64,000 bases of DNA from Callorhinchus milii (lineage: Eukaryota). A program made the position numbers and the translations under genes. The notes beneath the pieces were generated by a model. The model was not told the origin of the DNA, ran no database searches, and worked only from the letters and a program-made list of their open reading frames with translations. Below are positions 39,581 to 63,604 of this stretch, piece after piece (position 1 is the first letter of the stretch; each line of letters begins with the position of its first letter). The stretch spans positions 3,350,001-3,414,000 of the forward strand of contig NW_024704743.1 in NCBI RefSeq assembly GCF_018977255.1, read 5' to 3'.

Positions 39581-39819
39581 GTGGGGCGAAACCTTAGGCA
39601 AGTAAGGTAAACTTGCCTAAGGTTTCACCCCACCCAGGAATCTAATCCAAGTCCTCTTGCTTGCGAGGTGAGCACACTAACCACTATGCTACAGGACTCC
39701 ACTTTGCTACAGGTTTGCAAATTAAGGGCGGATTGCACAATTCTGTGGGATCACAAAGTGCATTGTGAGGCACAGGGTCTTACACATTTGTCCAGTGAAG
39801 CTGGTGAAGATGGCGAAGC

Positions 39820-40218
39820 TTGACTTCAAGATCCTCACTCTAGTGTTTAAATCCCTCCATTCCTTGGCACCCCCCCCATCTCTCTAACCTCCTCTCTCCC
39901 CACAGTAGTGCCCACTGCCTCCACTCTACTGGATGTGGACTCCTCCGCGTTCCCCCGAATCCTCTGCTCCATCATCGGCGGCCATGCCTTCAGCCAATAC
40001 GCCCCGAAACTTTGGAACTCCCTCCCTCAACGCCTTCGCCTGGCCCCTCCCCCACTCCTTCCCCATCTTCAGGTCGCACCTGAAGACCTTGCTTTTCAAC
40101 CGTGCCTACAGTCATCTTCTCCCTCCCTGTCTGGCTCGGCCTCGAGCTCCACCATTGTTAAGTGCTCTGAGACACCATCCGGCATGGAGGGCGCTATATA
40201 AGTGCAAGTTGTTGTTGT
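39820..40218 (+). mobile_element. L2-like LINE 3' fragment
   Basis: GGHAFSQYAPKLWNSLP...FRSHLKTLLF motif; (ttg)n tail. Confidence 0.78.
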
Positions 40219-40256
40219 TATATAGAAGTGAATGTTACCTTGAAAAGTTGCTGCTG

Positions 40257-40426
40257 TTAGTCGCAAGGTGTGTCACACCTGTTTTTCCATGGGTTGAACT
40301 CCATGTCAGGAGGACAGGTCAAATGGATGGTTTTGCTATTCATACACTGGTAGAAACTCGACTTATTGGCTGGGTCTTTGTAGAATCCGTCAGGCTTCCA
40401 ACAGCAGAAATTTGGCTCAACATATG
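40257..40426 (-). CDS. Gene B last coding exon: CBM14 #8 plus stop (AYVEPNFCCWKPDGFYKDPANKSSFYQCMNSKTIHLTCPPDMEFNPWKNRCDTPCD*)
   Basis: Hand-translated; not in the ORF track. ttgccttgcag acceptor, phase 1, TAA at 40259-40257; AAG|GTAACA donor 18 nt after the stop. Confidence 0.88.
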
Positions 40427-41824
40427 CTGCAAGGCAATGGCAGAGTCAGCTATGGTCCTGGAAATGTGGTCAGGGAGGAAGGCAGGGAGGAAGGAAGAAA
40501 GGAAGAAAAGAAATTGAGAGAGAAAAAGGAAGAAAGAAAAAGTAAGAGAAAGAGAAAAATGGGGGCAAAAAGAGAGTAAAAAGAGAGAAGGAGAAGGAGA
40601 ACATGATGAAGCAAAGGAGAAAAGGAAATGGAGAAAGAGAAAAAGAATGAGAAAGAATATAAAGAATTGGAATTTTACAGTGCTTCACAATGTTGTCAAG
40701 TGTAAATCCATGGGCAAACAGCAGTCAGTTTGTGGACAGCAATGTCCCACAAACAGCCAGGAAGTGGGAGACCAATCTTCTCTGGAGGACACTGGGAGAA
40801 ACTCCTGTCTCTTTACCAATAGTGTCACAGGATCTTTTACGTCCACCCTGAACAGGCAGTCAGGGCCTTGTAATCCCTCGCAAAGTATCGTCAGCCTGGA
40901 CTGTGAGTTCAAAGTCCCGAAGTACAGATCAAAACCCCAACTTTCTGCCTCAAGCTCTTTCCTGTGGAACGTCACTCCACCTCTTCGCAGACACCAACAG
41001 TGAGTTTTCTTTTATGAAACACACGATGCTGGTGTATGACGCAGCATTTCAAAGTCACCACAAAACAAATCCTCAATCATGGACCCCAGTGGTGGCCAGG
41101 CTTTATGGCCGGCCAACAAAATAAATTTTCTTGATTAAATATTTCTTGATTTATGCCATAAATCAAGTGATGTTCCACAACAATAACAACAAATTGCATT
41201 TATGTGGCACTTTTCATGTTGGGAGGACATCCCAAGTCGTGGGACAATAAGGGGTTTGCACCCGAGGTGTGGGTTGGGATCAGAGAGGGGTGGAGGGCAG
41301 GGAGGGTGAAGAGTGAGGATGACTGAAGGTACGGCTGAAAAGGAAGGTTTCGAGACGAGCCATGAAGGAGGCGAGAGCGGATGCGAGGCGGAGGGACTCC
41401 GGGAAGGCGTGCAATCAGAGAAAAATGAAAACACATTACCGATTGAACACGAACTTACCTGGGCTCGTGCAAATGTTTTGGGGAGTCGTTTCTTGATGGC
41501 CCGTGGGCCACAGTTTACCCACTGATTTACAACATTGCTCAATATAAGATTAGAAGACCTCACTGAAACTAGCCCTCAAAAACTCTGCCTCTTCCATCTC
41601 CTCTTACCCTACCACCAGCCTCGCCCTCCACTCCATACACTCAGGCTCCCTGTGCCTTTGTCTTACCAATTATTGGTGCCTGAGGATTTAGCCACTGCAC
41701 TCCTGCTCTCTGGAATTCCTTCCCAAAATGCCTCTGTCAACCTCTCTCTCCAAACAATAATAATCCTTGCATTTGATATAATACCTTATCAAGTCTTTGC
41801 ACCATCTCAAAGCGCTTCACAGAA

Positions 41825-42149
41825 TATAATAATAATAATAATCCTTGCATTTGATATAGCGCTTTTCACGTCGGGAGGACGTCCCAAAGCACTTTACAGA
41901 ACACACTGTAAAGTGAATTGACTGTATGTTTGTGGGCGAACGCGGCAGCCAATTGCGCACAGCAATGTCCCACAAACAGTCGTAGATTGAAAATGACCAA
42001 TTTATTATTGTTTTTGGTTTTGGAGGGATTATTATTAGGCTCTGTGTGGAGTAAGGAAACTTGCCCAAGGTTTCGCCCCCTGCCTGGAATTGAACTCAGG
42101 TCTCTCGCTTGCAAAGCGAGTGCTCTAACCACTGAGCTACAGGACTCCA
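41825..42149 (-). mobile_element. tRNA-derived SINE (young copy nested in an older copy spanning ~41755-42443)
   Basis: Near-identical to the 30521 copy; flanked by the tail and head of a diverged SINE. Confidence 0.85.
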
Positions 42150-42684
42150 TTAAAAAGTGAATTGACTATAAACTTTGTGGGTGAAACGCAGCAGCCAATG
42201 GCGCACAGCAATGTTCCACAAGCAGTCATGGATTGAGTTACCAGATTATTATTATTTTTTAAGGGATTATTACCTCGGAAAAACGATCCGCCAATCGACT
42301 AACAACCGGGTTTCTACTTACTGCTCGGTAAACAGAGGAGTGTGGAGTAAGAAAACTTGCCCAACGTTTTACCCAATCCGGGAATCGAACCCAGGACTTC
42401 TCGATTGTGAGGTGAATGATCTGACCACTGAGCTACAGGACTTTGCATCACACTTCTCCCAAGCAGCAACTTCTCTTAACATCTATCAACAAGCCCTTGG
42501 GTCGCCTTTCCCTATGCCCTGCCTTCTCACTTTGTTCAAGTATCCACATTGTGCATGTAAAATGCTCCACAAAGTTCCCCTATGGGATAGACCTGTTTTC
42601 CATTGTAAAGACAGATAGGCTCTTTTCTGTGATTACAATAGATGTCTGGCTGAATCTTGCTTAGCTACATTGACTCTCATGTAC

Positions 42685-42897
42685 CTGTAGTGCTTGGACT
42701 GGGCATGGCTGAGCTCGGCTGGACATTGATTGGAAAGTCACACACGCTGCTTTGTGAGTTGAAGATGAGACCAGGTGGGCAGCTCAAGTGGAACGTTCTC
42801 CTAAATGCGCACTGATAGAAGCTGGAGCTGTCCTTTGGATCGATGTAGAGGCCATCGGGTTTCAAGTTGCAAAAGTTGGGATCCACCTGGTCAGGTC
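42685..42897 (-). CDS. Gene B exon 9: CBM14 #7
   Basis: Tandem copy of the 213-nt exon with intact splice sites and frame. Confidence 0.88.
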
Positions 42898-43716
42898 CTG
42901 CAGGAGCATCACAACGTCAGCTATGGGCAGCCCTGAACTAACCACATGGGCTTGGGACTGGCTCAGAACATCTGACGCTGGGTTGACAATAAGCAAAGGT
43001 AAAATCATCACTGATTGGTGTTCAATGGTAGATAGCCCCTAGGGTCCTTGGTTCCTGAGGTTCACTCAAGCTAGATTGACGAACTCCCCAGAAAATCTCT
43101 GGTCAAGAGGTCCCTTCTTCCCAATTGATCTCAACCTTCCATACTACTCCCAAACTGATCATTTTCCATTCAGAGTGCACACATTGATCTGGAATCCCAA
43201 TCCCATCTCCTCTCATGACAACATCAGTGTTTCTCCCAGACTCTACCATCTCAGCTGTCCATCCGTCCAGTACAAGGAAATACTTCCTGGTGTGCACCCT
43301 ACAATTTCCCTTCACACCCTTTGAACCCATGGGTGTCCTCAGTGTAGCCCAAAGGAATATTCTCGTTGACTTTTTTCCTTCCCAATCCCAAACACTTCTT
43401 TTTTGGCTCTGAGGTTGGGGCAACAACCACTCTATGTGACAGGGACTGGACACACAACACTTCAGGCATGGTTGGAACATAGCTCATGTAGCATGAGCTG
43501 GACTTCTGGGCATCGGAACTCAACTGGTTGGCAATGGAGCCCACCATCCTGATTGGCCTGGGTTTCTGTCTTACAGAGTTGAGACATCGTGAGAAATGAG
43601 ACAATTCACACCCCCAGATCTCTTTCACTTTTCCCCAAGGCAATTTCAATCCTTCCCATGTCATATCCCCTGATCGTAGCATCCTATTAAATTGATCTGC
43701 AATGACTCTCATGTAC

Positions 43717-43929
43717 CTGTAGTGCTTGGACTGGGCACGGCTGAGCTGGGCTGGACATTGATTGGAAAGTCACACACGCTGCTTTGTGGGTTGAAGATGA
43801 GACCAGGTGGGCAGCTCAAGTGGAATGTTCTCCCAAATGCACACTGATAGAAGCTGGAGCTGTCCTTTGGATCGATGTAGAGGCCATCGGGTTTCAAGAT
43901 GCAAAAGTTGGGATCCACCTGGTCAGGTC
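43717..43929 (-). CDS. Gene B exon 8: CBM14 #6
   Basis: Tandem copy of the 213-nt exon with intact splice sites and frame. Confidence 0.88.
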
Positions 43930-44771
43930 CTGCAGGAGCAGCACAGCATCATCAATGGCCGGGGGCAGACCTGACCTAACCAAATGGGCTTGGGACTGGC
44001 TCAGAATATCTGACGCTCGGTTGACAATGAGCAAAGATAAAATCTTCACTGATTTGTGTTTATTCCGGTCAATGGTAGGTACCTCCTTGGGTCCTTGGTT
44101 CCCGAGGTTCACTCAAGCTATGTTGACAAGCTCTCCAGAGAATCTCTGGTCAAGAGGTGCCTTCAGCCCAATTGATCTCATCCTTCCATACTCCCAAATT
44201 GATTGTCTTCCAATCAAAGTGCCAAACATTGATCTGGAATCCCAATCCTGTCTCCTCTCATGACAACATCAATGTTTCTCCCGGCCTCTACCATCGTCTC
44301 AACTGTCCATCCCACCCTACCCCCACTGTGCAAAGAAATACTTCCTGCTGTAGGCTCTGCAATTGCCCTTCACACCCTTTGAGCCTATGAATGTCCTCAG
44401 TGTAGCCCAAAGGATTATTCTCATGGACTTTTTTCCTTCCCAATCCTAAACTCTTCTTTTTTGGTTCTGGGGTTGGGGCAACCACTCTATGTGACAGGGA
44501 CTGGACAGGCAACCCTCCAGGCGTGGCTTGAGCAGAGCTCATGGAGCATGAGCTGGACTTCTGGGCATCGGAACTCAACTGGTTGGCAATGGAACCCACC
44601 ATTCTGATTGGCCTGGGTTTCTGTCTTGCAGAGTTGAGACATTGCGTGAGTTGAGTTAATTCACATCCCCAGATCTCTTTCACTTTTCCCCAAGGCAATT
44701 TCAATCCTTCCCATGGCATATCCCCTGATCGTAACATCCCATTAAATTGACCTGCATCGAATCTTATGTAC

Positions 44772-44984
44772 CTGTTGTGCTTGGACTGGGCACGGCTGTG
44801 CTGGGCTGGACATTGATTGGAAAGTCACACACGCTGCTTTGTGGGTTGAAGATGAGACCAGGTGGGCAGCTCAAGTGGAACGTTCTCCCAAATGCACACT
44901 GATAGAAGCTGGAGCTGTCCTTTGGATCGATGTAGAGGCCATCGGGTTTCAAGTTGCAAAAATTGGGATCCACCTGGTCAGGTC
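44772..44984 (-). CDS. Gene B exon 7: CBM14 #5
   Basis: Tandem copy of the 213-nt exon with intact splice sites and frame. Confidence 0.88.
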
Positions 44985-45829
44985 CTGCAGGAGCAGCACA
45001 GCATCATCAATGGCCGGGGGCAGACCTGAACTAACCACATGGGCATGGGACTGGCTCAGAATATCTGACGCTCGGTTGACAATGAGCAAAGATAAAATCT
45101 TCACTGATTTGTGTTTATTCTGGTCAATAGTAGGTACCTCCTTGGGTCCTTGGTTCCTGAGGTTCACTCAACGTATGTTGACAAGCTCTCCAGAGAATCT
45201 CTGGTCAAGAGGTGCCTTCTGCCCAATTGATCTCATCCTTCCATACTCCCAAACTGATTGTCTTCCAATCAGAGTGCCAAACATTGATCTGGAATCCCAA
45301 TCCTGTCTCCTCTCATGACAACATCAATGTTTCTCCCATCCTCTACCATTGTCTCAGCTGTCCATCCCACCCTACCCCCACTGTGCAAGGAAATACTTCC
45401 TGGTGTATGTACAGCAATTGCCCTTCACACCTCTTCAGCCTATGGGTGTCCTCAGTGTAGCCCAAAGGATTATTCTCATTGACTTTTTTCCTTCCCAATC
45501 CCAAACTGTTCGCTTTTGGCTCTGGGGTCAGGGCAACTATTCTATGTGACAGAGACTGGAAGAGCACACAACACTCCAGGGTGGTTTGAAGAGAGCTCAC
45601 GTAGCATGAGTTGGATGTCTGGGCATCTGAACTCAACTGGTTGGCAATGGAGCCCACCATCCTGATTGGCCTGGGTTTCTGTCTTGCAGAGTTGAGACAT
45701 CGTGAGAAATGAGACAATTCACACCCCCAGATCTCTTTCACTTTTCCCCAAGGCAATTTCAATCCTTCCCATGTCATATCCCCTGATCGTAACATCCCAT
45801 TAAATTGACCTGCATCGAATCTTATGTAC

Positions 45830-46042
45830 CTGTTGTGCTTGGACTGGGCACGGCTGTGCTGGGCTGGACATTGATTGGAAAGTCACACACGCTGCTTTGT
45901 GGGTTGAAGATGAGACCAGGTGGGCAGCTCAAGTGGAACGTTCTCCCAAATGCACACTGATAGAAGCTGGAGCTGTCCTTTGGATCGATGTAGAGGCCAT
46001 CGGGTTTCAAGTTGCAAAAGTTGGGATCCACCTGTTGAGGTC
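45830..46042 (-). CDS. Gene B exon 6: CBM14 #4
   Basis: Tandem copy of the 213-nt exon with intact splice sites and frame. Confidence 0.88.
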
Positions 46043-46884
46043 CTGCAGGAGCAGCACAGCATCATCAATGGCCGGGGGCAGACCTGACCTAACCAAATGG
46101 GCTTGGGACTGGCTCAGAATATCTGACGCTCGGTTGACAATGAGCAAAGATAAAATCTTCACTGATTTGTGTTTATTCCGGTCAATGGTAGGTACCTCCT
46201 TGGGTCCTTGGTTCCCGAGGTTCACTCAAGCTATGTTGACAAGCTCTCCAGAGAATCTCTGGTCAAGAGGTGCCTTCAGCCCAATTGATCTCATCCTTCC
46301 ATACTCCCAAATTGATTGTCTTCCAATCAAAGTGCCAAACATTGATCTGGAATCCCAATCCTGTCTCCTCTCATGACAACATCAATGTTTCTCCCGGCCT
46401 CTACCATCGTCTCAACTGTCCATCCCACCCTACCCCCACTGTGCAAAGAAATACTTCCTGCTGTAGGCTCTGCAATTGCCCTTCACACCCTTTGAGCCTA
46501 TGAATGTCCTCAGTGTAGCCCAAAGGATTATTCTCATGGACTTTTTTCCTTCCCAATCCTAAACTCTTCTTTTTTGGTTCTGGGGTTGGGGCAACCACTC
46601 TATGTGACAGGGACTGGACAGGCAACCCTCCAGGCGTGGCTTGAGCAGAGCTCATGGAGCATGAGCTGGACTTCTGGGCATCGGAACTCAACTGGTTGGC
46701 AATGGAACCCACCATTCTGATTGGCCTGGGTTTCTGTCTTGCAGAGTTGAGACATTGCGTGAGTTGAGTTAATTCACACCCCCAGATCTCTTTCACTTTT
46801 CCCCAAGGCAATTTCAATCCTTCCCATGTCATATCCCCTGATCGTAGCATCCTATTAAATTGATCTGCAATGACTCTCATGTAC

Positions 46885-47097
46885 CTGTAGTGCTTGGACT
46901 GGGCACGGCTGAGCTGGGCTGGACATTGATTGGAAAGTCACACACGCTGCTTTGTGGGTTGAAGATGAGACCAGGTGGGCAACTCAAGTGGAATGTTCTC
47001 CCAAATGCACACTGATAGAAGCTGGAGCTGTCCTTTGGATCGATGTAGAGGCCATCGGGTTTCAAGATGCAAAAGTTGGGATCCACCTGTTGAGGTC
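46885..47097 (-). CDS. Gene B exon 5: CBM14 #3
   Basis: ctgcag|GACCT acceptor and CAG|GTACAT donor; 213 nt; GPQQVDPNFCILKPDGLYIDPKDSSSFYQCAFGRTFHLSCPPGLIFNPQSSVCDFP... Confidence 0.88.
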
Positions 47098-47419
47098 CTG
47101 CAGGGGCAGCACAGCATCATCAATGGCCGGGGATAGACCTGAGCTAACCACATGGGCTTGGGACTGGCTCAGAATATCTGATGCTCGGTTGACAATGAAC
47201 AAAGATAAAATCATCACTGATTTTTGTTAATTCTGGTCAATGGTAGATACCTCCTTGGGTCCTTGGTTCCCGAGGTACACTGAAGCTATATTGACAGTTC
47301 TCCAGAGGATCTCTGGTCAAGATATCCCTTCTGCCCATTGATCTCATCCTTCCAGACTCTCAGCCTGACTGTCTTTCAATCAGAGCACTACATTTCTTGT
47401 ATGAGTCCGAGCATCAAGA

Positions 47420-47640
47420 GCTCAAGCACCCTTCCTGGCAGCTTTGGCAACAGTTCTTATTGTGACTTATTCTGTGGGTTAAGGAATATTTCCTGATATC
47501 TGGTTTAAATCTGCCCTTCACAATCCTGAAGCCATGTCCTCGTGACTTAGGAACATAGAAATGTAGGAATGACCGGATGAAAAAAGACAATGGTCCATCT
47601 AGTTCACCTTCTACCATCCTAGTAGTCACATGCTGCAATA
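47420..47640 (-). mobile_element. LINE (CR1-like) fragments
   Basis: SRGHGFRIVKGRFKPDIRKY motif plus tail sequence. Confidence 0.6.
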
Positions 47641-47789
47641 ATGGAAATGTTGATAGCAATTAATTCTGGATGGATTATTCTACAACAGAGTGGAAAGCTT
47701 TGGGAACCTTAGATCCAAAGTGGAGCTCATCCCTCTTATACCCTGTGCTGAAGGCCTCATATCTTAGTAAAAGAAGTGCATGCAGTACT

Positions 47790-48112
47790 TCAGGAGCTAA
47801 TTCCCGAGCAGGGCGAAACCTTAGGCAGGTTTCCTTACTCCACACGCCTCCATTTGCCTAGCAATAAACAGGAACCGTTTTTTTTAGTCAATTGGCGGAT
47901 CACTTTCCAGGGCTAATAATCCCTCCAAAAAAAAATTGTTCACTCAATCCACGGCTGTTGGTGGGACACTGCTGGTGCAATTGGCTGCCGGTTTTCGCCC
48001 ACAAAATACACAATACAAAATATATTGACAATGTATGAAAGTGAAGCCTTTTGAGACCTCTCAATGACATGGGAAGGCGCTATAACAAAGACAAGGATTG
48101 TTATTATTATCA
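47790..48112 (+). mobile_element. Diverged tRNA-SINE
   Basis: gggcgaaaccttaggcag.tttccttactccacac core and caaggattgttattatt tail. Confidence 0.75.
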
Positions 48113-49436
48113 CTATAACTGAGACCACATTACAATTGAGAGCACACTACAATCGAGACCACCACAACAACTAAAGCAATCGCTACATTGGAGAACACCA
48201 CGATGATCTATGACTTCTGGGAACTGAGCCCAGCAATCTTTCTTTCTTTACAAGATCACAGCATCAGTTTCGATAAAGAAGACTCTTCAGACCATAATTA
48301 TTCCACAACAGCCATCGTCCCATCACAGCATTAATCTGCTTTGATCTAACACTGTGAGGCAGCAACAAATTGTGTTTATTGCAGCCGCACACTGTTAGAT
48401 TTGGGTCAACTAATGAGTCAACTAACACCCCAATTCTGTGCACAGTGGGTTTGCCTACAAATATACAATCACTTCATTTCACAGTAAATCCTGCCAAGCG
48501 TTTTGAGATGACCTAAACCAAATGCAAGTAAAGTAATATTATTTCTCAGCCCTTTGAAAACTGTTGTCTGTTTCCTTCACTGCTCCATTGATTCCCTGTT
48601 TCTGAAAGGATCCTCGTGCTCCTATATATATATATATATATAAATACCTTCACATCTTAGCATCTCATTACTTCTCTGACCCTCTCCGCTACCTGCCTCC
48701 TTGGCTCCTCACCACCATCAGTGACCGTGCCTTCAGCCACTGCGCTCCTAGCTTTAATCCGTGTGCCTTGCCTTTCCCTCTTTATCTATCTTTAAGACCT
48801 GCCTCTTCAACTGTGCATGTGGTCATCAAAACCTCCCACCCACCTTCTCCCTTCTCTCTTACTTAGCATCCAGCCCCACGACTGTGCAGTTCTTCAAGAC
48901 ACTGTCCCGCATGAAAGGCATGATATAAATACAAATTGCTTTTAGTCAATTACAAATCTACATCAGCAACATCTTGTGACTTTATTTTGTGAATTAATCT
49001 CTCCTGTGACTTTATCAAAGGCCTTTTTGAAATCCAGATTACACACATGGCTTCCCAGTCTGAATGCAGGAATGTCACTTGATAACAGCAACAATAACTT
49101 GCATTTATATGGCACCTCTCATGCAGGGTAGAGTCACAGGGCTCTAACAAAAAGTGTCTGAGATTGGTCGCACAAGACGAAGACCGGTTGGCCCATTTTG
49201 TATCAATAATCCCTTCATTTAACAAGATCTCAAAACATTTCACAGAGAATTGCTACCAAGTCTAGTAATGGTGTACTTGTAGGCAACATGTGGCTCGCTT
49301 GCACCAATTCTGCAATGCAGATCATTGATGCTTACATAAAATGTGTGCTGACCATCCTTGTGTTAGTTTATCTGTGACAGCTTCTGGTGTTGAAGAGTAA
49401 AGCTGTCAAAAAGTTACACTACATACATCCATAGGA

Positions 49437-49850
49437 TTTTTTTTTGCTCAGCGGGTGTCTGACATGTGTGGAAACCAAACCAAACTGAGAATTCTATGCA
49501 TTCCACCTGGAAATGCCAGAGATATTGTTGGGATGGAATGCGCACTCTCTCCCTGGAGGTACATATCCTGCTTACCTAATTCGGGAAAGTATTCGGCGTG
49601 CTTGGGGACCCCAGAGTGTGCATTGGGGTAACTGCTGGAGTCTAACCAGCTAAAATCCCATAGCTTGCCATTGATAATGCTGTCTGGCAAGCTTTCCCGC
49701 TGCTTGTCCAGCTAGGACCACCCTACTCTTTAGGGCTTTGGCTTATAGGCGTAACAGGAGCTGAGTGGGATAATTCCCACACGCGGCTGGGCTCGATTCC
49801 AATATTTCATTGCCAAACATGTCACCTTGGAGATAGTTCAACTTAAAAGA
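49437..49850 (-). mobile_element. Poly(A)-tailed dispersed repeat (same family as the ~475-bp insert in the array units)
   Basis: Ends gtcagacacccgctgagc(A)n on the - strand; other copies at ~34362-34570 (+), 35960-36440 (+), 36890-37085 (-), 60622-61120 (-). Confidence 0.7.
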
Positions 49851-50486
49851 GACCCTGCTTACAACGACAACAACAAATTACAAATATATAGTGCCTTTCA
49901 CATCAGGAGGACATCCCAAAGCGTTAAACGGTCAGGTGGTAGGGCACTCATCGTGTTATTTACTACGTTTCCCAATCTGGAAAATAACCTTTGATTTTAG
50001 AGAGGGTTATAGGGAAGAGAGAGGACAGGAAGGGAAGGAGGTAATAATAATAGTAAAACAAAAGTTAAACCTGTACCCGTATTCGAAAAACTGGTGCGCG
50101 GAAATGACATCACGCAGGGTGTTTTGGCTATTAGTTCAGGTGGGAAATTTTGAAATTTCAACTCCGCGCCTGAACCCACCGATAACCGTGCCTCCTACAC
50201 CGATTCCTGTTCACCCACCAATCCCCGTGACCAAGCTCCTTCCCCGAGACCTCTGCCCTATTGTTGCCTGCGGGTCTCAATCCCGCTGGTTCCTGTTGAC
50301 CTTGATATCCTCTCAACGCACTGCTGGAGGCCTCGCTGCCTCTCAAACTGAAGCATAGGATTATACAGGCAAGACAATAGAGTAAGAGACCAACGGACCA
50401 GTGGCCAATGGACTTTCTCATCCGCAAATCTCCTTTCCTTGAGCTCTATTCAACACCAAATATTAATATTTAATTTTCCTCTTTAC

Positions 50487-51437
50487 CTGTGGTGGTCACC
50501 AATGTGCTGTCCTCTACCGTTGTGGTTGTGGTTGTTGTAGTGGGGTCCGTTGTAGTGGTGGCTTCAGTTGTTGTGGTAGTGGCTTCAGTCGTTGTGGTAG
50601 TGGCTTCAGTCGTTGTGGTAGTGGCTTTAGTCGTTGTGGTCGGCTGTGTTGTAGTGGTGGCCTCAGTGGTTGTGGTGGGTTGTGTTGTAGTGGTGGCTTC
50701 AGTGGTTGTGGTGGGCTGTGTTGTAGTGGTGGCTTCAGTGGTTGTGGTGGCTTCAGTGGTTGTGGTGGGCTGTGTTGTAGTGGTGGCCTCAGTGGTTGTG
50801 GTGGGTTGTGTTGTAGTGGTGGCTTCAGTGGTTGTGGTGGGCTGTGTTGTAGTGGTGGCTTCAGTGGTTGTGGTGGCTTCAGTGGTTGTGGTGGGCTGCG
50901 TTGTAGTAGTAGCTTCAGTGGTTGTGGTGGGCTGTGTTGTAGTAGTAGCTTCAGTGGTTGTAGTGGGCTGTGTTGTGGTGGCTTCAGTGGTTGTGGTGGG
51001 CTGTGTTGTGGTGGCTTCAGTGGTTGTGGTGGGCTGTGTTGTAGTAGTAGCTTCAGTGGTTGTAGTGGGCTGTGTTGTGGTGGCTTCAGTGGTTGTGGTG
51101 GGCTGTGTTGTGGTGGCTTCAGTGGTTGTGGTGGGCTGTGTTGTAGTAGTAGCTTTAGTGGTTGTGGTGGGCTGTGTTGTAGTAGCTTTAGTGGTTGTAG
51201 TGGGCTGTGTTGTAGTGGTGGCTTCAGTCGTTGTCACACGCTCTGTGGTTCCTGGAGGGGTTGTTACAAAGATAACGATACATGCCTTCACCATGTCGCT
51301 GAAGACCAAATCTGGATCACATTTAACATGGATTGTTTTTCCCAACCGACAAAAGTAGAAACTTGTCACATCTAACGGATCCACATGGACACCATCAGGC
51401 AAGCCAGTGCAGAAGGTTGGAATCGCAGTTGTAGTGC
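50487..51437 (-). CDS. Gene B exon 4: CBM14 #2 (FCTGLPDGVHVDPLDVTSFYFCRLGKTIHVKCDPDLVFSDMVKAC) plus long (TTTEATTTTQP)-type mucin domain
   Basis: ttctcttgcag acceptor and CAG|GTAAAG donor; 951 nt open, phase 1-1; matches ORF 50470..51402. Confidence 0.9.
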
Positions 51438-51734
51438 CTGCAAGAGAAATAGCAACACAGATCTACATCTTGTCAAGCCCTGCTGACCCACATTTATCGA
51501 TAGTCCCTGCAGTTCACAATCCCTGCATTACCCGAAATACTACACGTCTGAACACCTCAAGATAACAAAGTAAGGAACTCCAATGTCATGAGTATTATCA
51601 TAAAGATGGTTTGTTGTGTGTGTACGTATGTGGGAATTGTGGATTGTGTTGCATTACATAAGAACATAAGAATTTGCGGAGCAAAAGAAATCCAAGGTCC
51701 ATCTAGTTTGCCGTCCAGCATCCTGGCAGTCTCA

Positions 51735-52046
51735 CTTGGATCACATTTAACAAGGATTATTTTTCCCAACCGACAAAAGTAGAAACTTATTCAAGATTGA
51801 GATAGCTAGATAGATTTCGTATTACAAAAAGGATTAAGGGATATGGGGATAAGGCAGGGTCAGGTTATTAGCTGGAGTTAGATTAGAAGATCAGCCGTGA
51901 TTGAATGGTGGGGGAGGCTCGAAGGACCGAATGGCCTACTCTTGCTCCTACATGTTATGTTATGTTATCACATTGAGTGGATCCACATCGACACTATCAG
52001 GCAAGCCAGTGCAGAAGGTTGGAATCTCAGACATAGTGCCTGCAAG
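51735..52046 (-). pseudogene. Dead duplicate of the gene B exon-4 CBM14, split by a CR1-type LINE 3' fragment
   Basis: 51737-51788 matches 51313-51364 and 51979-52046 matches 51377-51445; the halves are separated by a LINE tail at ~51789-51968. Confidence 0.8.
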
Positions 52047-52187
52047 ACATGTCATGTCCCAAACTATATACTGTACCCCGAGATATTATTTTCTAGCAGA
52101 ACTGTCTAATTTGTTCTTGAAACAAATTACATTTTCTGCTTCCACTGTCTCCCTAGGGAACCGGTTCTCTAAGTTTACTAGTATTAG

Positions 52188-52600
52188 TTTTGGTGTGTTG
52201 TGTGGGGTGTGTTAGGCTGGGATGTCTTGTTGGGTTATGTGGATAGGGGAGTGTTGGGTTATGTTGGGTTGGGGTGTGTTGGGTTGGGGTGTGTTGGGGA
52301 GTATTGGATTGGGGTGTGTTGGGTTGGAGTGTGTTGGGTTGGGGTGTGTTGGGTTGGGGTGTGTTGAGTTGGGGTGTGTTGGGTTGGGGTGTGTTGGCTT
52401 GGGCAGTGTCGGGTTGGAGTGTGTCGGGTTGGGGTGGGTTGGCTTGGGCAGTGTCGGGTTGGAGTGTGTCGGGGTGGGGTGTGTCGGGTTGGGGTGTGTT
52501 GGGTTGGGGTGTGTCGGGTTGTGTTGGGGTCTGTTGGGTTGGGGTGCATTGTGTTGTGTTGGGGTGTGTTGAGGTGTATTGGGCTGTGTTGGGTTGTGGT
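52188..52600. repeat. Intronic G/T-rich minisatellite, approximately (ttggggtgtgttggg)n
   Basis: 15-nt unit built from 5-mers. Confidence 0.9.
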
Positions 52601-52606
52601 GTGTAC

Positions 52607-53313
52607 CTTGGGAGGTTGTTGTTGAAGCCACTGTTGTCTGCACTGGGGCCTCTGTGGTCTGCACCGGGGCCTCTGTGGTCTGCACCGGGGCCTCTGTGGT
52701 CTGCACCGGGGCCTCTGTGGTCTGCACCGGGGCCTCTGTGGTCTGCACCGGGGCCTCTGTGGTCTGCACCGGGGCCTCTGTGGTCTGCACCGGGGCCTCT
52801 GTGGTCTGCACCGGGGCCTCTGTGGTCTGCACCGGGGCCTCTGTGGTCTGCACCGGGGCCTCTGTGGTCTGCACCGGGGCCTCTGTGGTCTGCACCGGGG
52901 CCTCTGTGGTCTGCACCGGGCCTCTGTGGTCTGCACCGGGGCCTCTGTGGTCTGCACCGGGGCCTCTGTGGTCTGCACCGGGGCCTCTGTGGTCTGCACC
53001 GGGGCCTCTGTGGTCTGCACCGGGGCCTCTGTGGTCTGCACCGGGGCCTCTGTGGTCTGCACCGGGGCCTCTGTGGTCTGCACCGGGGCCTCTGTGGTCT
53101 GCACCGGGGCCTCTGTTGTTGTGGTTGGCTGTGTTGGTGCGGCAGTTGTTAGTAAAATGCAGAAGTCGATAGGATCGAATATCCGATTGTTTTGACACGT
53201 GCTGTAGATTGATATGTCTCCCAGGCATTGGAAGAAGCTGGCATTGTCATTGGGGTCAGGATAGATGCCAATTGCTTTTCCATGGCAAAATTTAGCAATT
53301 GGAGCACTGGTCC
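52607..53313 (-). CDS. Gene B exon 3: CBM14 #1 (FCHGKAIGIYPDPNDNASFFQCLGDISIYSTCQNNRIFDPIDFC) plus ~23x TTEAPVQ mucin repeat; 1-nt frameshift near 52918-52920
   Basis: ctcttgcag acceptor and AAG|GTACAC donor. The exon is 707 nt, one base short of a multiple of 3; one 21-mer has ggg instead of gggg. Confidence 0.82.
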
Positions 53314-53674
53314 CTGCAAGAGAGTCACAATGTTAGTCTTGCACAAAGACAGAACAGTCACAACACTCAAACCCCTAGCAGCATCTTAAAACGCTTCACA
53401 GATAAATACTGTAAGTGTAGGCAAAAGTGATAGCCATTTTCCACAGAGCAATGTTGCTCAAGGAGCTGACCAACCAATTGGCATCAGGCAGGACACTGGG
53501 AGAAGCTCCCTTCTCTTTTCAAATAACGCCGCAGGATCTTTAATGTCACCTGAACAGGCGAAGATGGGACCTCCGTTTAATGCCACATTGTGAATCATGA
53601 AGCTGGAACTGAGAAACGTCAGACCCAAAGGGAGATTGCTAGCAAGAAATGGGCAGATTTGTGTGGATATTTTT

Positions 53675-54715
53675 CACATAGGATGGAAACAGGAAGAGGC
53701 CATTCAGCCCTTCGAGCCTGTTCCACCACTTAATTAGATCATGGCTTATCTGTACCTCAACTAATCCTTTCAATTCCAATTTCCGCTTTCTCCCCATATC
53801 CCTTAATACCCCGACCAACCAAAAATGTATCAACCTCACTCTTGAAGGTGTGGATGGAACCAGCATCCACGGTCTTTTGGGGGAGAGAATTCTAGATGTC
53901 TACCACCCTTTCAGTGAAAAAATGCTTCCCGATTCCACTCTTAAACGGCCTGGTTCTAATTTTAAGACTACGCCCCTTGTTTTGGATTTTCCCCCCAGAG
54001 TAAATAGCTTCTCTGTATCTACCCTATCAAATCCCTTTATCATCTTAAATACCTCAATCAAATCACCCCTCAACCTTCTAAACTCAAGAGAATCCAAGTT
54101 TACACAGCCTTTCCTCGTAACTTAACTCTTTCAGGCCTGGTACATTCTGGTGGACCTGCACTGCACCCCCTCCAGGGCCAATATATCTTTCCTGAGGTGT
54201 GGTGCCCAAAACTGAATGCAGTCTCCAGATGGGGTTTGACTAATGCTCTATACAGCTGAAGCATCATTTCTTCCCCTTTGTGTTCCAGGCCCCTTGAAAT
54301 AAAAGCCAACATTCAATTTATTTTTCTGATTAGTTTTTGCACCTGGAAACTAGTTTTTAGTGATTTGTGGAAATGGACACCTAAATCTCTTTGCTCTTCC
54401 ACAGTTCTTAATTCTCCCTATTAAGAAAATATTCTGCTTTATCTTTTTTTGGTCCGTAGTGGTTGACCTCACACTTCCCTACATTGAACTCCTTCTGCCA
54501 ATGCTTTGCCCATTCATTTAATCCGTCTAAGTCCCTTTGTGACTTCCTACTCTCATCTATGCAATTTACTGAGCCACCTATCTTAGTGTCGTCTGCAAAC
54601 TTGGATATAAAACTTTCTAGTCCTTCATCCAAGTCATTTATATGTACAGCGAATAGCTGGGGTCCCAGTACGGACCCCTGGGGGACACCACATGTGACGT
54701 CCCACCAATGAGAGA
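53675..54715 (-). mobile_element. 5'-truncated, degenerate CR1-type LINE (RT fragment)
   Basis: GVPQGSVLGPQLF..INDLD...KFADDTKIGG and LEFRRLRGDLIEVFKMIKGFD motifs, broken by frameshifts. Confidence 0.92.
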
Positions 54716-54802
54716 ACAAGGGGGTGATACATACAATAAATACATACAGTATTTATGTATACAGACTGGTAGAGATTATACAGAGAGTTTGCAAAGACTC
54801 AC

Positions 54803-54835
54803 CCAATTGTCCGAGGACCATGAAGACCAGTGAGA
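54803..54835 (-). CDS. Gene B exon 2: hydrophobic signal-peptide core (V)SLVFMVLGQL(G)
   Basis: tatttgtttcag acceptor and G|GTGAGT donor; 33 nt, phase 1-1. Confidence 0.8.
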
Positions 54836-54914
54836 CTGAAACAAATAATAAATAGAGATAGTGTGAAGTCAAAGTGTTGGTCACACACAGCATGTGCAGC
54901 CTCTCAGTCATGTT

Positions 54915-55297
54915 ATAATAATAATAATCCTTGCATTAGATATAGCGCCTTATCACGTCTCAAAGCACTTCACAAAATATACTGTAAAGTGAATTGATTG
55001 TATATTTTGTGGGTGAATGAAGCATGGGAGCCAATTGCATACATCAGTGTCCCCCAAACAGTCGTGGATTGAGTGACCAAATCGTTATTTTAAAAAAATT
55101 GAAGGGATTATCATCCCTGGAAAGCGATCTACCAATTGAATAACAACCAGATTCCTACTTACTGCTAGGTAAACAGAGGCGTGTGGAGGAAGGAAACTTG
55201 CCTAAGGTTTCGCTCTGCCTGGGAATTGAACCTGGGACCGCTTGCTTGAGAGGCAAGCGTGCTAACCACTAGGCTACAGGGCTACAAGCTACAGGAC
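54915..55297 (-). mobile_element. Diverged tRNA-SINE
   Basis: Same family head, core and tail on the - strand. Confidence 0.8.
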
Positions 55298-55304
55298 ATT
55301 GCAA

Positions 55305-56335
55305 CCAGGCAGAGAGCGGAGACAGACAGAGAGCGGAGACAGACAGAGAGTGGGGATAGGCAGAAAGTGGGGACAGGAGTGGAAAGGGCAGGAGTGTAGA
55401 GGAGAGGAGTGGAGAGGAGTAGAGAGGAAAAAGGAGGAGAGAAGAGACAAGTGGAGAGGCGAGCGGAAGGGAGGAGAGAGGAGAATAGTGAAGAGTGGAG
55501 AAGAGAGGCGAGAAGTGTACAGGAGTGAAGAAGAGCAGAGTGGGGTGGAGAAGGGAGAAGAGGAAAGGAGCAGAGAGGATAGAGGAACGTAAAGGAGAAG
55601 GGAGAGAAGTGAAGAGAAGAGCAGAGATGATGAGAGGAGGAGTAGAGGAACGGAAAGGAGAGGAGAGAAGAGCTGAGAGGAAAAGAGAGGAGCGAAGAGA
55701 AGTGGAGAGGAGAGAGATGAGATGAGAGGAATGAAGGGAAGAGCAGAGAGAAGAGAGAGGAGTGAAGAGGAAAGGAAAGAAGTGGAGAGGAACACGAAGA
55801 GTGCTGGCTGGAGGAGTAGAGCAGAGGAGAGAGGAGTGGAGAAGAGAGGAGAGGAGGAGAGAGGAGAGGAGAGAAAAAAAAGAGGAGAGGACAGGAGCAG
55901 AGAGGAATAGAATGGAGAGGAGGAGAGATGAGTGGAGAGGAGTGGAATGGAAGAGAGGGGAGAGGAGGAGACGGAGAGAGGAGAGAGGAGGGAAGAGAAA
56001 AGGAATGGAGAGGAGGAGAGAGGAGTAGAGAGCGGAGAGGAGCATGAAAGGAGAGGAGGAGAGAGGAGAGGAGAGAGGAGTGGAGAGGAGAGAGGAGTGG
56101 AACGTGAATAGAAAGGAGGAGAGGAATGGTGAGTGCAGCGGAGCAGCAGAGAAGAAAGAAGATGAGAGGAGAAAGGGAGAGGAGAGGACAGGGAGGTGCA
56201 GAGTGGGGTGAAAATAGAGGAGAGGAGGAGAAGAGAAGAGAGGAGTGCAAAGAGTAAAGACTAGAAGAGCAGAGTGGAGAGGAGACGAATGGAGAGGAGA
56301 GGAGAAGAAGAGAAGAGGAGCGGAGTGGAGTGAGG
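55305..56335. repeat. ~1-kb polypurine (GGAGA-type) low-complexity tract in gene B intron 1
   Basis: Almost exclusively A/G on the + strand. Confidence 0.9.
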
Positions 56336-56345
56336 GACCGCTCAC

Positions 56346-56361
56346 CTGCGCACAGGTACAT
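56346..56361 (-). CDS. Gene B exon 1: start of signal peptide (MYLCA)
   Basis: gacagccATG context; CAG|GTGAGC donor; phase 1; TATA-like element ~50 nt upstream of the ATG. Confidence 0.75.
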
Positions 56362-56412
56362 GGCTGTCAGCTGGAGTGATCTTCCCACACTGTTCAGGGC
56401 GCCTCTCTCGGC

Positions 56413-56420
56413 TATTTATG
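56413..56420 (-). promoter_or_regulatory. TATA-like box (CATAAATA) of gene B
   Basis: Lies ~50 nt upstream of the ATG, consistent with a short 5' UTR. Confidence 0.55.
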
Positions 56421-63299: not shown

Positions 63300-63512
63300 T
63301 CATGGAAGGCACAGGGAATTACAGGGGTCCCCGGAACGGAACAGGCTATACACACTGACCAGGGGGAACATGGTGAGAGCCCCCAGCATAGAGCCCAGCT
63401 GCACCACCGCTCCGCACAGTAGAAGGGCACTATGGCCTTCTTCTCGTAGAATCACCCCAATCATGACCTTCACGTAGGACAGACTCCCTGTGAACAGGGT
63501 CCACGACAGCAC
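63300..63512 (-). CDS. SLC52A3: Riboflavin transporter, last coding exon ([70 protein letters not shown])
   Basis: Matches the SLC52 C-terminus as I recall it (SYVKVM.GV.LR...ALL.CGA.VQLGS.LGAL.MFPLV, terminal C-x3-C); tgtctcccag acceptor; upstream exons lie outside the window. Confidence 0.85.
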
Positions 63513-63604
63513 CTGGGAGACACAAAGGGAGCACACGTTACACGTCCTGCTCACAAGAGCGCAAACAGAGAAACCGGCTTAACACGGCATGGAGCGGTGG
63601 AAAT

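Follow-up and report, generated by a model that had tools for sequence, protein, structure and literature searches.

Chitin is established in the gut of fishes and in the electrosensory gel of sharks, and the proteins that organise it are unnamed. Does the chimaera Callorhinchus milii carry a gene for such a protein and, if so, from which known family could it have come? The gene that raises this question lies on the minus strand at 40257..56420 of a 64,000-nucleotide (nt) stretch of contig NW_024704743.1 (the window; coordinates without another contig name refer to it). The analysis showed that it is a real gene, common to chimaeras, sharks and rays, which has been annotated automatically and apparently has not been studied. 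Its predicted product carries eight CBM14 domains and long mucin-like linkers, probably goes back to a chitinase gene and may tether the animal's own chitin.

Gene model, splicing and orthologues

Ten coding exons were recognised, all with GT/AG ends and all joined in phase 1, as a sequence-only reading of the locus had proposed. The length of about 980 amino acids (aa) claimed there after correction of one base was also recovered, as conceptual splicing of the ten exons with an N at a single-base frame break gave 980 aa and one stop. The features are as follows.

56412..56420, minus strand: putative TATA-like element, from sequence, 59 nt upstream of the ATG
56346..56361, minus strand: exon 1, coding part of 16 nt with the first 5 signal-peptide residues and a phase-1 donor; the RefSeq model starts identically
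54803..54835, minus strand: exon 2 (33 nt, phase 1/1), which encodes the hydrophobic signal-peptide core; counterpart segment in shark, skate and ray proteins
52607..53313, minus strand: exon 3, CBM1 (type A) and about 23 TTEAPVQ repeats; no binding-site aromatic
52911..52930, minus strand: single short TTEAPVQ unit of 20 nt, one base short in a homopolymer run, which shifts the frame
51737..52047, minus strand: incomplete, dead duplicate of the CBM2 exon, within intron 3; an insertion separates its two pieces, which are 87% and 96% identical
50487..51437, minus strand: exon 4, CBM2 (type B) and Thr-rich mucin segment; no binding-site aromatic
46885..47097, minus strand: exon 5, CBM3, first of five 213-nt type-C copies in tandem units of ~1.05 kb
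45830..46042, minus strand: exon 6, CBM4 (type C), from splice sites and Pfam
44772..44984, minus strand: exon 7, CBM5 (type C), from splice sites and Pfam
43717..43929, minus strand: exon 8, CBM6 (type C), from splice sites and Pfam
42685..42897, minus strand: exon 9, CBM7 (type C), from splice sites and Pfam
40239..40426, minus strand: exon 10 with CBM8, a type-E domain that has two extra cysteines; its stop (40259-40257) is followed by 18 nt of untranslated region (UTR)

All eight domains exceeded the cut-off of Pfam CBM_14 (PF01607; 28.4-55.4 bits against 22.1). They are accompanied by two long Thr-rich linkers, the first of 190 aa (31% Thr) and the second of 262 aa (65% Thr, 72% Thr+Ser+Pro), so that the claimed set of eight CBM14 domains with mucin linkers was confirmed. 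The predicted secretion of the protein agrees with a signal-peptide-like N-terminus, judged from hydropathy and orthologues, and with the hydropathy profile, in which no membrane segment was seen (no 19-residue window beyond residue 30 above 1.51). In the Pfam scan, no family other than CBM_14 exceeded its cut-off, either in the window domains or in the whole orthologues; a gel-forming mucin of the MUC2 type, as the RefSeq name would have it, was rejected on the same scan, in which the VWD/C8/TIL and cystine-knot domains did not appear. The absence of a catalytic domain, likewise proposed earlier, also held. All eight genome-wide matches to GH18 (PF00704) lay on contig C19 and none at the window locus, a tblastn search with a coelacanth chitinase against 224 kb around the gene returned CBM exons only, and no GH18 was seen in the flanks among 145 scanned of 327 non-repetitive open reading frames (ORFs) of at least 60 aa.

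Evidence for splicing came from four sequencing runs compared with 39600-43700, a span that takes in exons 9 and 10. A 513-nt contig of run X1 (depth 4.3) was identical to 40426-40239 and carried 66 and 259 other letters on its flanks; a contig of run X11, by contrast, was continuous across both exon 10 ends. This shows that exon 10 is spliced at both canonical ends in the RNA-type run X1, the kind of which is a guess, no run found by the run search being recorded as RNA and the run tissues being coded. As exon 10 reaches a GT donor at 40238, 18 nt beyond its stop, there is a further non-coding exon downstream. A scan for such a UTR exon of 259 nt gave seven candidates spread over all three polyA signals and thus does not discriminate between them.

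Several points caution against extending this result to the whole gene. The RNA support consists of one contig of depth 4.3 from one of three runs of guessed RNA type, and it concerns that exon alone, with the exon 9-10 junction and the ten-exon mRNA lying outside it. In the X1 contig, the initial 66 letters did not align to exon 9, where the depth was 0 (42614-42750); exon skipping upstream of exon 10, as in shark isoform X3, is possible. Runs X9 and X7 had no cover of exon 10, and exon 9 was uncovered in all three RNA-type runs; these gaps carry no evidential weight.

The frame break in exon 3 could mean that the chimaera copy is decaying, or that it is expressed in short isoforms only, the frameshift being real or exons 5-9 being seldom used. 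Consistent with decay are the break itself, the dead CBM2 pseudo-exon in intron 3, the lack of a chimaera counterpart to domain D of the shark protein and the exon-skipping isoform of the shark orthologue. However, the 20-nt unit stands alone among 22 measured 21-nt TTEAPVQ spacings. The RefSeq model XP_007899433.1 is in frame through a collapsed three-unit version of the repeat, and the shark, skate and ray orthologues read on past the repeat into the next domain, which makes a homopolymer assembly error the likely cause of the break. Exons 5-9 are near-identical (3-10 nt differences per pair), with no stop, no indel and splice sites kept in all five, and their introns are 88-99% identical. 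A contig of a DNA-type run carries the exon-5 alleles at 8/8 listed differences from exon 9, indicating that the type-C array is not peculiar to this assembly. Together with the canonical splicing of exon 10, in which the run comparison showed one variant, a synonymous one, these results make decay or exclusive use of short isoforms very improbable.

The type-C domain is 100% identical to the Callorhinchus milii RefSeq prediction XP_007899433.1 ('mucin-2-like'), a model of 652 aa that lacks exon 2 and in which type C occurs four times, against five in the window gene. Colinear orthologues were found in Heptranchias (XP_067824898.1), Amblyraja (XP_032897520.1) and Narcine ('integumentary mucin A.1-like'); the names of all these models are automatic only. 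The elasmobranch models share the order signal peptide, domain A, repeat linker, B, Thr mucin, C and terminal E. They differ in having one type C plus a type D, whereas the window gene has five type C and no D, and an exon for shark domain D was found neither in the window nor in the Callorhinchus milii genome. The exon 3 region shares 57% identity with that of shark domain A, and a genome search with the shark protein placed its seven best matches all at the window locus. In the domain tree, CBM1 grouped with elasmobranch A (99/97), CBM2 with B (100/99) and CBM3/7 with C (96/76); CBM8 fell in no starred group and was placed near E. In this terminal domain, shark and skate have one additional cysteine, and the window CBM8 has two. 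The skate (Amblyraja) orthologue is catalogued as isoforms X49 and X50, which suggests extensive variation of the mucin segment.

Related proteins were sought among representative proteins (E<=0.001, best 150 of 3675), and 20 homologues, mostly four-cysteine or of high identity, were picked for naming (15 vertebrate, 1 crinoid). All 12 vertebrate proteins scanned contained 4-19 CBM_14 stretches and no GH18. These twelve, all predictions, came from shark, skate, sturgeon, bichir (two), lamprey, hagfish and teleosts (five); the shark and skate members are the orthologues, and the hagfish model begins mid-domain. Fish predictions named 'chondroitin proteoglycan 2-like' or 'cbd-1-like' are thus likewise multi-CBM14 without GH18; their orthology to the window gene is not established, and in the tree the domains of the teleosts and of one bichir set fell together with those of chitinases. 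One bichir GenBank model joins a CBM14 array to a chitinase domain, and together with that grouping it suggests that the fish arrays may have several origins. As multi-CBM14 models that lack a catalytic domain are present from hagfish and lamprey to bichir, sturgeon and teleosts, the window protein is not a one-off. The uniqueness implied at the outset has therefore to be given up, the gene being already predicted in RefSeq, with three elasmobranch orthologues and arrays predicted from hagfish to teleosts. A search of open full-text literature, mostly of titles and abstract starts and with subscription papers outside it, returned no work on vertebrate non-catalytic multi-CBM14 proteins; in their available parts, PMC10234404, PMC1945033 and PMC9671328 treat CBM14 only within chitinases or not at all.

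Likeness to peritrophins and chitinases

Insect peritrophins and intestinal mucins share with the window protein a signal peptide, several CBM14 domains, Thr/Ser/Pro linkers and the lack of a catalytic domain. Insect proteins with multiple chitin-binding domains (CBD) along with domains rich in proline, threonine and serine (PTS) are described in section 10 of PMC6109156, a paper on the chordate gut barrier in which they are contrasted with the Ciona proteome. The Ciona proteins VCBP-C and Ci-GFM1 are chordate secreted CBM14 proteins at an endogenous chitin barrier (PMC6109156); they combine one CBD with Ig-V or VWD, whereas the window protein consists of CBM14 and PTS segments only.

Peritrophin-A has a six-cysteine register. 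In a survey of 2136 domains from 211 proteins, 1142 of which were kept after removal of isoforms, short matches and within-protein near-copies, Cys2 was found in 47/50 and Cys6 in 40/50 named invertebrate domains, and in 1/103 and 0/103, respectively, of the named vertebrate domains (8 window and 32 chitinase domains included). All eight window domains lack both cysteines, as do vertebrate chitinase CBM14s. The peritrophin-like architecture claimed for the protein thus stands as regards multiple CBM14 domains, PTS linkers and the lack of an enzyme, and fails as regards the six-cysteine register; by its predicted sequence, the window protein is peritrophin-like by design and is not a member of the peritrophin-A family.

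The CBM14 domains of the GH18 chitinases CHIA, CHIT1 and CHIO have the same four core cysteines without Cys2 or Cys6, and CHIT1 is the best fold match. The 33-nt phase-1/1 exon 2, which encodes the signal-peptide core, is likewise shared by the window gene and both chitinase genes of contig C19, and the CBM exon of chiA is also in phase 1. Unlike the chitinases, the window protein has no GH18 and eight modules, and its gene lies on another chromosome-scale contig; its domains are without the additional cysteine pair (Cys460-Cys462) that CHIT1 has at its C-terminal end and have Phe or no aromatic at Trp465. In a tree of 146 rows and 57 columns, 79/81 vertebrate domains fell on one side (90/86, unstarred). 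In a two-tree test with 88 rows, the 'vertebrates together' tree scored 39.9 log units better than the 'chondrichthyan plus arthropod' tree; clade tests on the tree gave no information, both constrained trees outscoring the free quick tree.

Taken together, the predicted sequences probably reflect an origin from a duplicated GH18 chitinase gene, in which the catalytic exons would have been lost and the phase-1 CBM14 exon multiplied. As the four-cysteine domains and the 33-nt exon 2 point to a chitinase gene, the likeness to peritrophins would be convergent, and the locus is likely a case of peritrophin-like design reached through exon loss and duplication in a chitinase. Convergence had been raised by the sequence-only reading; it is probably correct in view of the vertebrate-type domains and the chitinase-like signal-peptide exon, and weaker as regards the tree test. 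Three observations count against the chitinase origin. The arthropod grouping was not rejected (delta log-likelihood 39.9, p-AU 0.13 in the approximately unbiased (AU) test), so that derivation from a chitinase is likely and not shown; the gene is unlinked to the chitinase cluster (contig C2 against C19); and four-cysteine domains also occur in some possibly non-vertebrate proteins.

The first two of these observations also fit an ancient gene, common to vertebrates and invertebrates, for a non-catalytic multi-CBM14 protein as the ancestor. Shark domain D also groups with hagfish domains (99/92), suggesting that the family may predate jawed vertebrates, and introns in phase 1 are frequent in secreted proteins built of modules. 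On the other hand, the cysteine pattern, the length and phase of exon 2 and the tree split all argue against such a descent, and the signal peptides of the teleost non-catalytic proteins resemble, by eye, those of teleost chitinases. Whatever the function of the protein, we regard this ancient origin as doubtful and derivation from a chitinase as the better account.

The chitinase genes themselves yielded further observations. Contig C19 2891900-2905830 holds two tandem GH18 chitinase genes, the second of which ends in three divergent CBM14 domains, not one. Between them (2897630-2897860) lies a defective relic of a tandem pair of CBM14-like domains, in which stops and a shift of frame occur. 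Chitinase models of Siganus and Esox (3154 and 5937 aa) contain many CBM14 copies and are possible chitinase-to-array intermediates.

Possible chitin binding and function

In CHIT1, Pro451, Leu454 and Trp465 are high-impact chitin-binding residues, and the affinity of the single domain is weak, with a dissociation constant (Kd) of 9.9 mM for GlcNAc3 (PMC5459812). At the equivalent positions, P/L/F was found in all five type-C copies (CBM3-7), Q/R/L in CBM1, D/L/V in CBM2 and P/M/T in CBM8; the elasmobranch type-C domains have P, L and W (3/3), and the Trp is kept in 12/12 lamprey domains. The chiA domain, 18 bichir domains and one chiB domain, in which the pattern was misread or missed, are excluded from this comparison. 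A model of the type-C domain built from the single sequence (predicted local distance difference test, pLDDT, 71.5) agreed with the CBM14 beta-sandwich fold and gave the human CHIT1 CBM14 as top Foldseek hit (E 6e-5, template modelling (TM) score 0.64). As Pro, Leu and an aromatic are retained together in CBM3-7 alone, the five-fold amplified type-C domain is, judging by its residues, the likely chitin binder, and multivalency would matter because a single CHIT1 domain binds weakly.

The claim that these are chitin-binding CBM14s stands for the family assignment (8/8 by Pfam) and is reduced by the three domains without the aromatic that matters most in human CHIT1. Weighing further against chitin binding, the other five have Phe, not Trp, and the fold may serve other ligands, one PDB hit being an Aplysia polyphenol-binding protein by name. 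It is conceivable that the domains no longer bind chitin and serve as disulfide-knotted interaction modules, for proteins or other ligands, in a mucin-like protein. Domains A, B and E, which lack the Trp465-equivalent aromatic and are yet position-conserved in chimaera, shark, skate and ray, would fit this idea, as does the Aplysia protein. The retention of Pro, Leu and the aromatic in all eight type-C copies (5 window, 3 elasmobranch) and of Trp in the lamprey domains speaks against it, and we consider it improbable.

On balance, and at slightly better than even confidence, the sequence suggests a secreted protein with heavy O-glycosylation that would tether the animal's own chitin in a multivalent manner. 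The type-C domains would bind chitin weakly singly and strongly together, five copies giving five-fold more sites and higher avidity. Thr tracts that carry O-glycans adopt an extended, rod-like shape with a rise of roughly 0.25 nm per residue. At that rise the glycosylated linkers would be stiff hydrated spacers of tens of nanometres, about 45-65 nm, so that one molecule could bridge several chitin fibrils or globules and gel the animal's own chitin. Domains A, B and E may make protein contacts, and the terminal domain may connect chains through its extra cysteine. As to tissue, the ampullary gel and the gut membrane appear about equally likely, and skin mucus less so.

The Callorhinchus milii genome contains chitin synthase exons on contig C3 (73023014-73025060; L040, L041) with EDR and QRRRW motifs; L042 and L043 are presumably hyaluronan synthases by their motifs. 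EDR and QRRRW are reported as chitin synthase motifs (PMC10234404). Chitin and chitin synthase expression are reported in chondrichthyan ampullae (10.1101/687301), and the presence of chitin in the gut membranes of hagfish and teleosts is described as well (PMC6109156 section 10). In ratfish ampullary gel, chitin-rich globules are joined by rope-like, protease-sensitive tethers, which the authors left unnamed (PMC8379299). In paddlefish, a transcript whose top hit has PF01607 only is 13.7-fold up in ampulla-rich operculum compared to fin (adjusted p, padj, 1.9e-25; PMC5429088 supplement row 276). Against taking this as support, the Pfam label belongs to the top hit of the transcript (PMC5429088), which is no more than a possible orthologue of the window gene.

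The same architecture would also fit a mucosal defence or digestive lectin that acts in the mucus of gut or skin and binds foreign chitin, from crustacean prey, parasites or fungi, so as to agglutinate or lubricate it. Ciona VCBP-C traps bacteria on the barrier via its CBM14 (PMC6109156), and derivation from a gut chitinase gene, as suggested by the shared exon 2, would give gut expression. However, no microbe-binding or catalytic domain is attached to the window protein, long spacers between binding modules would suit cross-linking, and the genome has a chitin synthase; we regard a lectin for foreign chitin as unlikely. A wider proposal, built on the tether for endogenous chitin, is that early vertebrates assembled peritrophin equivalents from a chitinase gene, the window gene encoding the rope that cross-links globules in the ampullae of Lorenzini and its relatives scaffolding the chitin membrane of the hagfish and bony-fish gut. 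This is put forward tentatively, as a rather unlikely extension. The window gene and its fish relatives are in any case specific, testable candidates for the electrosensory-gel tether and the gut-lining chitin protein.

Neighbouring genes and a mini-exon array

On one side the gene has RRM and PDZ genes as neighbours, on the other SLC52 and F-box genes; the nearest upstream gene is the SLC52 transporter, about 7 kb away. These neighbours probably include PUF60, SCRIB and FBXL6, in a setting like human 8q24.3. Two copies of the SLC52 riboflavin-transporter gene lie directly upstream (window 63303-63578, minus strand; L024:984-2285; L025:6939-7898).

On the plus strand, window 199-33334 is occupied by about 30 tandem units of ~1.3 kb, which reach about 4.4 kb beyond the left end of the window. 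Each unit contains a 48-nt phase-1 mini-exon-like segment with conserved splice sites that encodes a Trp/Thr/Pro-rich 16-mer of the TWRPTKDPWTTTRRQ type. One copy has 46 nt, and the last, in which there are four internal repeats, is 102 nt long. In the genome the segment has 30 matches, and all of them lie at this array.

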